Assembly: GCA_033345235.1 (NCBI GenBank) | Contig: JAWPOC010000016.1 | Span: 69,026 to 133,025 of the forward strand | Direction of reading: 5' to 3' | Length of the DNA: 64,000 nt | Origin: Alphaproteobacteria bacterium | GTDB lineage: Bacteria > Pseudomonadota > Alphaproteobacteria > Rs-D84 | Shown: positions 47,249 to 49,050 of the stretch, one piece after another | Position numbering within the stretch: the stretch's first letter is position 1 | Layout of the letters: each line of letters starts with the position of its first letter | Position numbers and translations under genes: made by a program | Notes under the pieces: model-generated | What the model saw: the letters and a program-made list of their open reading frames with translations, nothing else | Told to the model about the DNA's origin: nothing | Databases searched by the model: none

Positions 47249-47406
47249 GTCTTTACCCCATGTTTTCAGATTTTTCTAGCTTAGGGTATACCCATTTTTT
47301 TACATTTTCAAGAATATATTGTGTCTGGTATTGACATTTTGTTAAATTTGTCTATATTAACTGGAGTGAGTGATATGTGTATAATATGAATCAAGGAGGT
47401 ATAAAT

Positions 47407-47928
47407 ATGACTTACCAAGCTTATACAGAACAAGATATTCGTAACGCGATGGCAGTGGGTTTAGATAGTTTAACAAAATTGGCACGTGTTAGATTAAAAA
47501 CACGTTGGAAACAGATGCCTTTGAATAAACGCTGTGATGCAGCGCGTGCATTGGTTAATATGAATGCCGTAGCAAAAAAACCAGAGGCCTATTTTTCACG
47601 TGCGGCGACACAGCAAGCATGGAATAAACGTGCAAATGAATATGCGCAGGAAAAGAATTTAAAAAATGCCAGTGACGCATATTATATCGTTCAAGATCCA
47701 ACAGGGGTGGTTTGGAATTCTGTAGCAGGTGCATTCTTTGATGGAAATGGCAGTGATTATTATAATTTCTGTGAATTGATTCAAAATTGGGAATATAATA
47801 ACATCAAAGGCTTGTATGCGGATAAAATATTGAATTTGGCCAAAGCGTATAAAAACAAATTGGAACTGGCCAGTGCAAATAATTTTGCGCGTCCGTTTGT
47901 CGAAATAAAACAGGCTTTTCAAAGATAA
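47407..47928 (+). CDS. hypothetical protein, paralog 1 of a tandem pair
   Basis: RBS AAGGAGG 8 nt upstream of the ATG. Shares …ARALVNMNAVAKKPEAYFS…WNKRANEY…NFCELIQNWEY with the next gene. Confidence 0.45.
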   Translation: MTYQAYTEQDIRNAMAVGLDSLTKLARVRLKTRWKQMPLNKRCDAARALVNMNAVAKKPEAYFSRAATQQAWNKRANEYAQEKNLKNASDAYYIVQDPTGVVWNSVAGAFFDGNGSDYYNFCELIQNWEYNNIKGLYADKILNLAKAYKNKLELASANNFARPFVEIKQAFQR

Positions 47929-47941
47929 TAGGTGAAATTAT

Positions 47942-48475
47942 ATGTCGCATAATATCAGATTTGTACATTCGCAAATAGGTAAGGCTTTACAAGCGTTTAA
48001 AAATATCGCACATGCAGATTTGGTAAAATCTTGGGGGCGGTTTTCACAATCAGAACGTTGCCAAATCGCACGTGCGATGTTACTGATGGAAAATGCGGCC
48101 AGAAAGCCTGCAAACTATTTTTCATACGCAAAAACATATGCTACTTGGCAAACCAGAGCAAACAAATTTAAACAAGGCTTTGGTTTAACAGATGATGCGG
48201 TTGCGATGGATGCTGTTACAAATCCAGCCGAAGAATTTTTTGAAAAGGTCAAAATTGTTTGGATGAATCCAGACTTAGCACAGAAATATAAAAAATTCTG
48301 TGAATTGGTATATCTGTGGGAATATGCACGTAAGTCTGAACAATCAAGTGATGTTGTTGAAAAGTATGTAGATGCAATATTGTTTGTTGTGGCTGAGGTA
48401 TGTGCATATCAATTGCAGATACTAAACCAGAAAAATGCGTTCTTTCAAAAAATAAAAATGTATATATGCCGTTAA
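47942..48475 (+). CDS. hypothetical protein, paralog 2 of a tandem pair
   Basis: …ARAMLLMENAARKPANYFS…WQTRANKF…KFCELVYLWEY. Confidence 0.45.
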   Translation: MSHNIRFVHSQIGKALQAFKNIAHADLVKSWGRFSQSERCQIARAMLLMENAARKPANYFSYAKTYATWQTRANKFKQGFGLTDDAVAMDAVTNPAEEFFEKVKIVWMNPDLAQKYKKFCELVYLWEYARKSEQSSDVVEKYVDAILFVVAEVCAYQLQILNQKNAFFQKIKMYICR

Positions 48476-48476
48476 A

Positions 48477-48503
48477 AAAAATCCCCGTTTGGGGATTTTT
48501 TTA
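48477..48503. terminator. bidirectional terminator (TCCCC-N4-GGGGA type), probably the original serS terminator
   Basis: AAAAAAAATCCCCGTTTGGGGATTTTTTT, immediately followed by the displaced 42-bp copy of the serS 3' end. Confidence 0.6.
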
Positions 48504-48507
48504 TTGG

Positions 48508-49050
48508 TGTTTACCGCCGATTTTTGTGCGACCACCCATCAATGGTTGTTAATCCCCTTCGTCTGGCGAAGGGGTGCCCGTTAGGGCGGGGTAGTGGTTT
48601 TTTGTTGTTTCTTCAATTGATGAAATAACTTTATCTATTTGGAATTTTACGTCATGGTCGTCAAAATGTATTACAGACAGACCAAGCGATTTTAAATATT
48701 CATCTCGTTTTTTATCATATGTATATTTATTATCGTGCGAACAACCGTCGATTTCTATGACCAGCTTTAATTTTGGACAGTAAAAATCAACAATATAGTT
48801 CCCTATGATGCGTTGTCTATCAAAATCAAGTCCATTCGTACGTTTGTTTTTTAGTAAGTTCCACAAAAGAACTTCGGATAGGGTAGATTTTTTACGTAAT
48901 TCACGTGCGTTTTTTCGTAAATCTTTATTTGATGGTAATTTTATTGCCATAATTTACCACTACCCCGTCCGCATTCGCGTCCACCCCTTCGCTTAGCGAA
49001 GGGGATTATGTTTACCGCCGATTTTTGTGCGACCACCCATCAATGGTTGT
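48508..49050. mobile_element. small selfish cassette: 42-bp direct repeats (serS 3' end) flanking ~50-bp GC-rich inverted repeats and a DUF559 endonuclease-like gene
   Basis: DR 48508-48549 equals DR 49009-49050 (TGTTTACCGCCGATTTTTGTGCGACCACCCATCAATGGTTGT, 42/42). IR 48551-48598 AATCCCCTTCGTCTGGCGAAGGGGTGCCCGTTAGGGCGGGGTAGTGGT is matched by the reverse complement of 48956-49007. The DUF559 ORF lies between them. Confidence 0.6.
48549..48950 (-). CDS. DUF559 domain protein (Vsr-like/PD-(D/E)XK endonuclease fold)
   Basis: …LRKKSTLSEVLLWNLLKNKRTNGLDFDRQRIIGNYIVDFYCPKLKLVIEIDGCSHD… matches the DUF559 consensus. The last 15 codons are encoded by the left inverted repeat. Confidence 0.75.
   Translation of the reverse strand: MAIKLPSNKDLRKNARELRKKSTLSEVLLWNLLKNKRTNGLDFDRQRIIGNYIVDFYCPKLKLVIEIDGCSHDNKYTYDKKRDEYLKSLGLSVIHFDDHDVKFQIDKVISSIEETTKNHYPALTGTPSPDEGD

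Follow-up and report, generated by a model that had tools for sequence, protein, structure and literature searches.

How does a gene for a small nuclease come to lie exactly at the last codon of an essential gene, between two identical copies of that gene's own end? The question is raised by a stretch of DNA from an Alphaproteobacteria bacterium (GenBank assembly GCA_033345235.1, contig JAWPOC010000016.1, positions 69,026 to 133,025), the whole 64 kb of which we call the window. At the 3′ end of its seryl-tRNA synthetase gene, serS, a 42-mer (TGTTTACCGCCGATTTTTGTGCGACCACCCATCAATGGTTGT) occurs in two exact copies with 0 mismatches, where 0 would be expected by chance, and the 459 bp between the copies (48550-49008) consist of an arm, a 133-aa minus-strand open reading frame (ORF) encoding a DUF559 protein, and an inverted arm. 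The evidence presented here indicates that this 459-bp unit is very probably a copy of a self-promoting, selfish mobile nuclease cassette, and that it is one member of a very large family, apparently undescribed, whose elements invade conserved genes across many bacterial phyla. An earlier note, made from the sequence of the window, had pointed out the perfect duplication, the inverted arms and the minus-strand DUF559 gene, all of which are present as described, and had seen in them a minimal selfish cassette encoding DUF559 alone; DUF559 is indeed the sole ORF in the unit.

A putative nuclease cassette inserted at the end of serS

The unit is placed exactly at the last serS codon, co-oriented with serS and between the gene and its terminator (Table 1). 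In the window, serS traverses repeat copy 1 into the proximal arm and ends there as ...GGKHNPLR*, with its new stop codon, TAA (48993-48995), in the loop of that arm's hairpin 1. The displaced copy, reading ...GGKHQ*, precedes the intrinsic terminator, which now ends the combined serS-DUF559 unit and also serves a convergent hypothetical gene. The DUF559 ATG lies 5 nt past the proximal arm's GGGGTAGTGGT, and the distal arm encodes the final 16 DUF559 codons and the stop. No promoter-like site was found in the arm, and since the unit has neither promoter nor terminator of its own, it is presumably co-transcribed with serS by read-through. The two arms align with each other as inverted repeats (alignment I1, 40 nt at 75%; I5, 15 nt at 93%), and each folds as single-stranded DNA into two adjacent hairpins (z of -3.7 to -5.5 against shuffles). 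Hairpin 1 is palindromic and is therefore also present as a direct repeat in the two arms, its copies in the window (48554-48574 and 48984-49004) being 86% identical. The same arrangement, identical to that of the window, was assembled independently in four other metagenomes (L001-L004), indicating that it is not an assembly artefact.

Table 1. Features of the inserted unit and its surroundings at the 3′ end of serS (window coordinates)
Feature	Coordinates	Strand	Evidence or detail
Original bidirectional intrinsic terminator of serS, AAAAAAATCCCCGTTTGGGGATTTTTTT	48475-48502	.	Terminator scan; sequence
Displaced original serS end: C of His codon, CAA (Gln), TAA (stop)	48501-48507	-	Sequence
Direct repeat copy 2, displaced untranslated serS tail (..QPLMGGRTKIGGKH)	48508-48549	-	
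Distal arm, inward 5′ to 3′ TAATCCCCTTCGTCTGGCGAAGGGGTGCCCGTTAGGGCGGGGTAGTGGT	48550-48598	+	Hairpin 1 48554-48574, hairpin 2 48576-48587
DUF559 gene, 133 aa, predicted Vsr-fold nuclease	48549-48950	-	Pfam, AlphaFold2 model, homologues
Proximal arm, minus-strand reading TAATCCCCTTCGCTAAGCGAAGGGGTGGACGCGAATGCGGACGGGGTAGTGGT	48956-49008	-	Hairpin 1 48984-49004, hairpin 2 48970-48979
Direct repeat copy 1, functional serS tail	49009-49050	-	
serS (seryl-tRNA synthetase), 429 aa	48993-50282	-	Empty alleles 425 aa, i.e. 4 aa shorter

If the unit is mobile, some relatives should lack it. A SerS search returned 120 alleles (85-93% identical), 118 of which were classified by their C-terminus, approximately 21 as occupied (...GGKHNPLR*) and approximately 97 as empty (...GGKH*). 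Two empty loci read at the DNA level run ...AAG CAT TAA with the terminator immediately after and the same neighbours, and empty and occupied loci differ solely by the 459-bp unit and the 42-bp duplicate. In that differing DNA, Pfam and Rfam searches found no integrase, intron or intein, in agreement with the earlier note. The empty serS alleles and other arm-DUF559-arm units for which it proposed to search relatives do exist, and its identification of GGKHQ* as the original end of serS needs one refinement: the displaced copy in the window does read so, but the empty relatives end ...GGKH*. The hosts are distinct species, with serS 81-86% identical at the nucleotide level in a star-like pattern, and occupied alleles are scattered on a SerS neighbour-joining tree; Fitch parsimony gives 17 changes, a figure that we read only as 'many' since the tree is poorly resolved. 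Elements whose DUF559 proteins are 93, 86, 79 and 71% identical to that of the window occupy the same serS position in other species, in the shared order trxB-serS-element-hypothetical-bipA. All serS-site elements keep the stop codon in the hairpin 1 loop (TAA, or TAG in L013), and this feature is limited to them, the site at which translation enters the arm. A scan of JGI metagenomes yielded a best relative at 60% identity and no additional serS-type sites.

An excision footprint was also sought at serS. At two loci (L187:2770-2790 and L188:2310-2330) the gene ends ..GGKHNS*, an additional 13 nt (AATAGTTAACAAC) separating the His codon from TAAAAAAA plus the terminator; this insert, rather than a hairpin-1 footprint, is what was found. 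Its bases match AAT (the arm start), TTA (the arm end) and ACAAC (the start of the 42-bp repeat), and it may be the scar of an imprecise excision.

Two further observations concern the neighbourhood of the insert. The terminators downstream of the element in the window (48475-48502) and in a related locus (L010:3470-3495) share the outer stem of arm hairpin 1 (AATCCCC...GGGGATT), which is absent from other lineages and from empty alleles; this may be a coincidence or a hint of a preference for hairpin-like targets. The serS-bipA interval is a variable slot in which relatives carry one or two hypothetical genes of 147-202 aa. In the window the slot holds two tandem paralogous hypothetical genes on the plus strand, convergent to serS (47377-47928 and 47942-48475; 29% identity, E 9e-18), neither of which has a Pfam or NCBIfam match.

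The element is younger than the backgrounds it occupies

Seven contigs carrying the same DUF559 protein (L015 and L176-L181) allowed variation to be compared across the insert within one population. A comparison of L015 with L176 gives 1 difference over the 457 bp of the element, against 23 in 1200 bp of serS upstream and 23 in 1199 bp downstream; approximately 9 differences would be expected in the element at the rate of the flanks (P ~0.002). Pooled divergence is 1.73% in upstream serS, 4.55% in tail copy 1, 0.31% in the element, 5.84% in tail copy 2 and 1.31% downstream. The interior is thus approximately 5-fold less diverged than the flanks, from which we conclude that the element is younger than the backgrounds it occupies and that variation is concentrated at its borders, as at hot spots.

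Two sets of variants, GGTCGC/GGCCGT and GGAAAG/GGGAAA/GGAAAA, were found in all combinations in tail copies 1 and 2, so that either the copies exchange sequence or the borders are mosaic. Given that the copies share polymorphisms in this way, we rejected the idea that the perfect 42/42 match in the window marks a recent insertion. In relatives, the two tail copies differ by 0-12%, and both track the local allele or share polymorphisms. The earlier note had held that the element preserved serS by carrying a replacement 3′ end. The data do not support this in the form given: at new targets (see below) the duplicate is the local gene's own tail, and the copies share polymorphisms, so target duplication or exchange between copies fits better than an imported tail.

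Exchange between repeats may also have reshaped some of these loci. A second proximal arm follows copy 2 in L011 (3400-3455) and L017 (2924-3058), giving a structure like that of a tandem array, and in L182 (1930-1990) a solo proximal-type arm lies approximately 30 nt past the element with no tail copy between; two of these three contigs end at the second proximal arm. Unequal exchange between repeats would yield tandem arrays and, reciprocally, clean empty sites.

The same unit occupies other gene ends

Elements with DUF559 proteins 64-68% identical and with TAATCCCCTTCG-type arms were found at four further gene ends, in each case co-oriented with the gene and abutting its stop codon. At alaS (L016) the final 50-54 bp, including the stop, are perfectly duplicated; at an unidentified gene (L017) the duplicate is 61 bp with 6 differences; at gap (L183) it is 36 bp with 5 differences; and at a pseudouridine synthase gene, rluD-like (L182), there is no recognisable tail duplicate. 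The duplicated tails are unrelated to one another and to that of serS, and no serS sequence moves with the element, indicating that the mobile unit is exactly arm-ORF-arm and that the duplicate is made from the target. Duplication length at gene ends therefore ranges over 36, 42, 50-54 and 61 bp, and no duplication was detected at the internal sites described below. Long flanking repeats were not found at most loci outside the close relatives, which indicates that tail duplication is specific to this gene-end sub-lineage. A separate case is a DUF559 unit in an unclassified metagenome-assembled genome (MAG; L078:2287-3040) that lies between two diverged 87-bp copies from an RHS/YD-like gene; there the duplication may be a property of the RHS locus and not of the element.

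A double-hairpin arm brackets DUF559 genes across phyla

We sampled 160 further DUF559 loci, taking one genome per species plus metagenomes. Nearly all of them, from many phyla, are bracketed by the same bipartite arm, which reads inward 5′ to 3′ at both ends with the consensus NATTCCCCTCC-NNN-GGAGGGGTG, a short covarying stem with a GNA loop, and then GGGGTGGT. A strict pattern retrieved 400 arms in 186 loci, 361 of the 400 within approximately 500 bp of DUF559. Among 67 distinct 41-nt arms, both helices are paired in 99.6% of cells, with 50 compensatory cells, mostly in hairpin 2; none of 500 shuffles paired as well, and slid controls reached 40-63%. The hairpin 2 stem varies (GCCC/GGGC, GGTC/GACC, GTCC/GGAC and others), and its loop is GAA, GCA or GTA in approximately 90% of the 41-mers. 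Solo and tandem arms also exist, the latter spaced in 42-nt steps.

The loops are informative about the kind of molecule under selection. GNA and GNNA loops dominate the inward-reading G-rich strand, with left and right arms counted apart, and their complement almost never appears there. At the right arm this strand is antisense to the DUF559 message, so the constraint has the two-fold symmetry of DNA and cannot be a feature of the mRNA. In the arms of L025, the hairpin 2 stem is flipped between left and right (GCCGCC-GAA-GGCGGC versus GGCGGC-GAA-GCCGCC) with the GAA loop on the same inward strand; their sequence appears to show clearly that structure is under selection together with a strand-specific loop. 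Mini-hairpins of the type d(C-GNA-G), such as GCGAAGC, are exceptionally stable in DNA, a property that fits a role of the arms in single-stranded or cruciform DNA.

Rfam gave chance-level matches only, in the region of the window and in five other loci. A search of 2.9 million viral contigs gave 7 weak matches, and on that basis we rejected a phage-borne element. DUF559 has been mentioned in passing as EDxHD-like (PMC9403480). We found no mention of mobility among papers on DUF559, and the arm sequences and peptides are absent from the searchable literature, which omits most subscription journals and in which a search by concept likewise brought up nothing of relevance.

Many copies lie in frame within longer genes

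In 79 of 182 units, the DUF559 frame extends far beyond the unit on one or both sides. Hosts of such in-frame copies confirmed with Pfam include HsdR (between HSDR_N and the helicase domain), HsdS, type ISP enzymes, N6/N4 and Eco57I-type methyltransferases, QueA, PriA, fumarase and a radical-SAM (LipA-like) protein, and in some cases a host domain is split. When translated, the left arm gives NSPPLEGW..GVV and the right arm HP....TPP.EGN, both of them peptides rich in Pro, Gly and Ser. An elaborate case is the hsdR gene of a Chitinophagales MAG (L037:992-5398; also L136), a 1468-codon frame with tandem solo arms translated as 14-aa units (FPSSGGVAESRGGK); it holds three arm sets, an in-frame GIY-YIG insert and a whole arm-DUF559-arm unit.

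Whether shared sites are simply a matter of common descent was tested on HsdR. Using an HsdR query with the insert removed, we compared the 120 closest homologues (84-97% identical). Approximately 100 were empty and 5 were occupied, the unit replacing a variable linker of approximately 10 aa; 8-9 carried an in-frame GIY-YIG domain, which lies 6 residues beyond the DUF559 site in the two inspected there. Insertion of both GIY-YIG and DUF559 at neighbouring positions indicates that the HsdR linker is a hot spot for in-frame nuclease insertions that lack inteins. One allele (P0326, 1085 aa) has only NSPPLEGN at the DUF559 site, i.e. a solo hairpin-1 palindrome of 24 nt, which could be the expected remnant of a deletion between hairpin-1 copies or, equally, a landing site.

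The DUF559 protein is a conserved, predicted Vsr-like nuclease

The 133-aa ORF matches Pfam DUF559 (PF04480) over residues 10-114 with 117.1 bits (cutoff 20.6; E 4.4e-34). Pfam finds DUF559 alone in the unit, with no HUH or Hint domain; the sole NCBIfam match, YcjD-like, falls under its cutoff; and PADLOC gave only weak generic nuclease matches, so membership of a defence system was rejected. An identical protein is encoded in an Alphaproteobacteria MAG, the nearest genomes being those of Candidatus Enterousia, a gut lineage, and more than 2,500 relatives came from one search. The Vsr-like fold named in the earlier note is supported by an AlphaFold2 model (predicted local distance difference test score 85) with a Vsr-like core, in which the arm-encoded residues 123-133 are disordered. 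The best Foldseek match is the crystal structure of a Neisseria DUF559 protein (3HRL, E 1e-7). Second comes 3R3P (E 6.5e-5, template modelling score 0.80 on the target), which holds the catalytic domain of I-Bth0305I, a homing endonuclease, followed by weaker matches to PvuRts1I, mitochondrial RAP-type proteins and Vsr (1VSR, 1CW0). A profile search of the PDB did not recover 3R3P at E<=1, so there is no sequence-level match to it. In 33 homologues, D55, E66 and D68 are invariant and H72 is nearly so.

The ratio of nonsynonymous to synonymous substitution rates (dN/dS) is 0.03-0.14 for DUF559 and 0.05-0.08 for serS in the same pairs, at a host dS of approximately 0.8-1.5. With such strong purifying selection and polymorphic occupancy, the unit is not the fixed, degraded relic that the earlier note had named as a way in which its reading could fail; nor is the 42-bp sequence a generic dispersed repeat, as it occurs only twice in the window. 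The protein is a single domain of 133 aa with no variable DNA-binding domain, shares 47-60% identity between elements in unrelated targets, and is probably too small and uniform to read many different long targets.

A DUF559 gene also occurs in Escherichia coli K-12, where ycjD (L196:7040-7900; NC_000913.3 1351039-1351899) directly follows sapF in the same orientation. Its last codons, which overlie a GC hairpin, encode a Pro/Ser tail, and approximately 40 bp of its 3′ end are duplicated approximately 60 bp downstream, beside GC-rich palindromes; the locus may be a decayed relative of a hairpin-armed DUF559 unit.

A proposed arm-centred mechanism and its alternatives

We propose that the element's nuclease has its cis sites in the arms, which it would recognise as DNA hairpins or cruciforms with two-fold symmetry. 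That the arms act as its sites is suggested by the conservation of protein and arms together at unrelated targets; that the arms rather than the targets fill this role is suggested by the covariation of the arms across phyla, the strand-symmetric GNA loops, the solo and tandem arms and the small, conserved protein. The nuclease would nick or cut at arms or at hairpin-like targets, and host recombination, repair and replication would then copy and join the DNA. Where breaks or gaps are staggered by approximately 36-61 nt, insertion would duplicate the gene tail and leave the essential gene intact; spread between alleles would proceed via homologous flanks; and the element would be lost when the tail repeats, or the two palindromic hairpin-1 copies, recombine with each other. 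Taken as a whole, a mobile selfish cassette moved by this arm-centred mechanism is a reading on which we are evenly divided. Tentatively, and leaning towards doubt, we raise the possibility that the family constitutes an unrecognised class of prokaryotic mobile element, in which a Vsr-fold nuclease works on its own double-hairpin ends by way of their strand-symmetric GNA-loop hairpins, joining is borrowed from the host, and genes are colonised in frame, the translated arms serving as linkers, or at the stop codon, where a long stretch of the gene tail is duplicated. In a bolder variant, in-frame copies may be removed at the RNA or protein level.

Several points weigh against this proposal. A PD-(D/E)XK nuclease cannot transfer strands alone, so the joining step is entirely hypothetical; the staggered origin of the 36-61-bp duplication is likewise a proposal only; and no biochemistry of any DUF559 protein was found in the searchable literature. 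No further arm, solo arm or second element copy lies within the window. The junction between arm and copy 2 varies by element lineage, which, judged from sequence comparison, could equally reflect homologous recombination that passes on the entire structure or cut positions particular to each lineage, and gene conversion between the tail copies, instead of their regeneration when the element inserts, could account for the polymorphisms that they share. Occupancy of the alleles ending ..NPLR* was confirmed at the DNA level for some alleles only. Finally, target-specific homing would predict the pattern seen here, one position occupied in many diverged alleles.

Such classical free-standing homing is the first alternative. 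DUF559 would cut the unoccupied serS 3′ end and homologous repair would copy the cassette in, with the arms serving as accessories (linkers, insulators or expression signals). Occupied and empty states of one site among diverged alleles of a conserved essential gene, repeated at HsdR, are as expected under homing; the element is more homogeneous than its flanks, and the mosaic borders resemble co-conversion. The second-best structural match is the catalytic domain of a proven homing endonuclease (PMC3239194), the Vsr/DUF559 clade includes I-Bth0305I (PMC3424549), and fungal mitochondrial endonuclease mORFs share both the gene-tail duplication and the endonuclease ORF (PMC3630166, PMC6279837). 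However, both halves of the target junction, upstream/tail at copy 1 and tail/terminator at copy 2, are intact in the occupied allele, and immunity of that allele to its own nuclease would thus need a recognition site longer than 42 bp. Homing creates no duplication, yet at new targets a duplicate of the local tail is present, and a small protein so similar across unrelated targets, with neither a variable DNA-binding domain nor a sequence-level match to 3R3P, is not what homing would lead one to expect. It would also be left unexplained why the arms are conserved and covary across phyla and have strand-symmetric loops, and why solo and tandem arms exist. Homing in this form is nevertheless the main rival and a strong one, though we consider it less likely than the arm-centred reading.

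A second alternative, which we judge improbable, is that DUF559 is a domesticated host repair or defence nuclease, the arms being REP-like regulatory or terminator hairpins and the polymorphism arising from deletions and ordinary recombination. Strong purifying selection, presumed co-transcription with a housekeeping gene from which the unit would borrow its promoter, and the retention of ycjD directly after sapF in E. coli all agree with this view, and REP-flanked RAYT genes are a precedent for domesticated units of enzyme plus repeats. Domestication does not account for close relatives at different genes, each with its own tail duplication, for in-frame copies that split domains of restriction-modification and housekeeping genes, for an element interior approximately 5-fold less diverged than its flanks, or for the patchy distribution at two independent sites.

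Much less probable still is a small integrative element moved in trans by an integrase or Xer recombinase, with the 42-bp repeats as attL and attR: although integrated elements typically duplicate the 3′ end of a gene, the repeats found at serS, alaS, gap and the unidentified gene are unrelated, 36-61 bp long and share no core, internal in-frame copies lack such repeats, and the inserted DNA encodes DUF559 alone. Least credible of all is an ancient fixed relic or assembly artefact, a view that the presence of the arrangement in several species might suggest and that is refuted by five identical independent assemblies (the window and L001-L004), by empty alleles that are in the majority and were read at the DNA level, and by an intact ORF whose dN/dS indicates constraint.

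Significance

DUF559 is a large nuclease family of 'unknown function' whose sole structure comes from structural genomics. If the arm-centred reading is true, much of this family would gain a function, as the mobility enzymes of hairpin-armed cassettes; DNA would move with neither transposase nor integrase, by means of a 133-aa protein and 50-nt arms; and autonomous partners would have been identified for a class of GC-rich palindromic repeats present in many phyla. The elements also flag sites at which essential and restriction-modification genes tolerate insertions of 150-190 aa, and the gene-tail duplications and in-frame peptide repeats that they produce confuse annotation. They provide natural presence/absence markers for uncultured gut Alphaproteobacteria (Ca. 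Enterousia), and, as they often reside in hsdR, hsdS and methyltransferase genes, one may ask whether there is an interplay with host defence.

Comparison with known systems

The cassette has points in common with several known systems. I-Bth0305I and the EDxHD homing endonucleases share its Vsr-like catalytic fold and are likewise selfish nuclease genes in conserved genes (PMC3239194), and presence or absence at a fixed site of a conserved gene, the pattern expected of homing genes, was found at both serS and HsdR. I-Bth0305I, however, is multidomain and group I intron-encoded, with a footprint of approximately 60 bp, and other members of its family are associated with introns or inteins (PMC3239194), whereas the protein described here is a free-standing, hairpin-armed single domain of 133 aa that resides in neither and has no sequence-level match to it. 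The fungal mitochondrial mORFs (Allomyces atp6; Glomus atp6, atp9, cox2 and nad3) are closer in architecture, with an endonuclease ORF at the 3′ end of a gene (PMC3630166, PMC6279837), and there too the gene has two copies of its tail, a functional one upstream and the native one, which has been displaced downstream (PMC3630166). They differ in encoding LAGLIDADG or GIY-YIG enzymes, in having a foreign upstream tail that is 64-81% identical, and in lacking hairpin arms (PMC3630166). A model of the mORF type with a foreign upstream tail was rejected for serS, as the tails are 42/42 identical in the window and both copies mirror the local allele.

With DNA transposons the unit shares terminal inverted repeats. 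It encodes no DDE, HUH, serine or tyrosine transposase, its sole ORF being DUF559, and in place of a short target-site duplication of fixed length its duplications vary (36, 42, 50-54 and 61 bp). Neither an integrase nor a common att core at the junctions, as expected of integrative elements, was found. MITEs (miniature inverted-repeat transposable elements) are non-coding; the unit carries a constrained ORF, and the solo arms in other genomes may be MITE-like.

Other systems built from short palindromes offer further parallels. In REP/RAYT systems (REPtrons, REPINs), as here, inverted hairpin repeats lie on either side of an enzyme gene and are also found solo or in tandem near gene ends. RAYT is an HUH Y1 transposase, and RAYTs are single-copy and vertically inherited; the cassette instead encodes a PD-(D/E)XK-type nuclease with no HUH domain, is polymorphic and occupies many different genes. 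In IS200/IS605 elements, structured hairpin ends are likely recognised as single-stranded DNA, as proposed here for the arms, but those ends are not inverted, the enzyme is an HUH transposase and the target is not duplicated, in contrast to the inverted ends and long, variable duplications of the cassette. E. coli Vsr, an enzyme with nicking chemistry, shares the fold and acts on T:G mismatches as the housekeeping partner of Dcm; the cassette has neither a methyltransferase partner nor a context of that kind. The palindromic elements of Rickettsia and, in mitochondria, double-hairpin elements or GC clusters are short, GC-rich palindromes with no encoded gene. Like many copies described above, they are in-frame, translated insertions into protein genes, and the bracketing of a nuclease gene by palindromic units in the family described here indicates that an autonomous form exists. 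Conservatively, we file the serS cassette with a known kind, the selfish nuclease genes.

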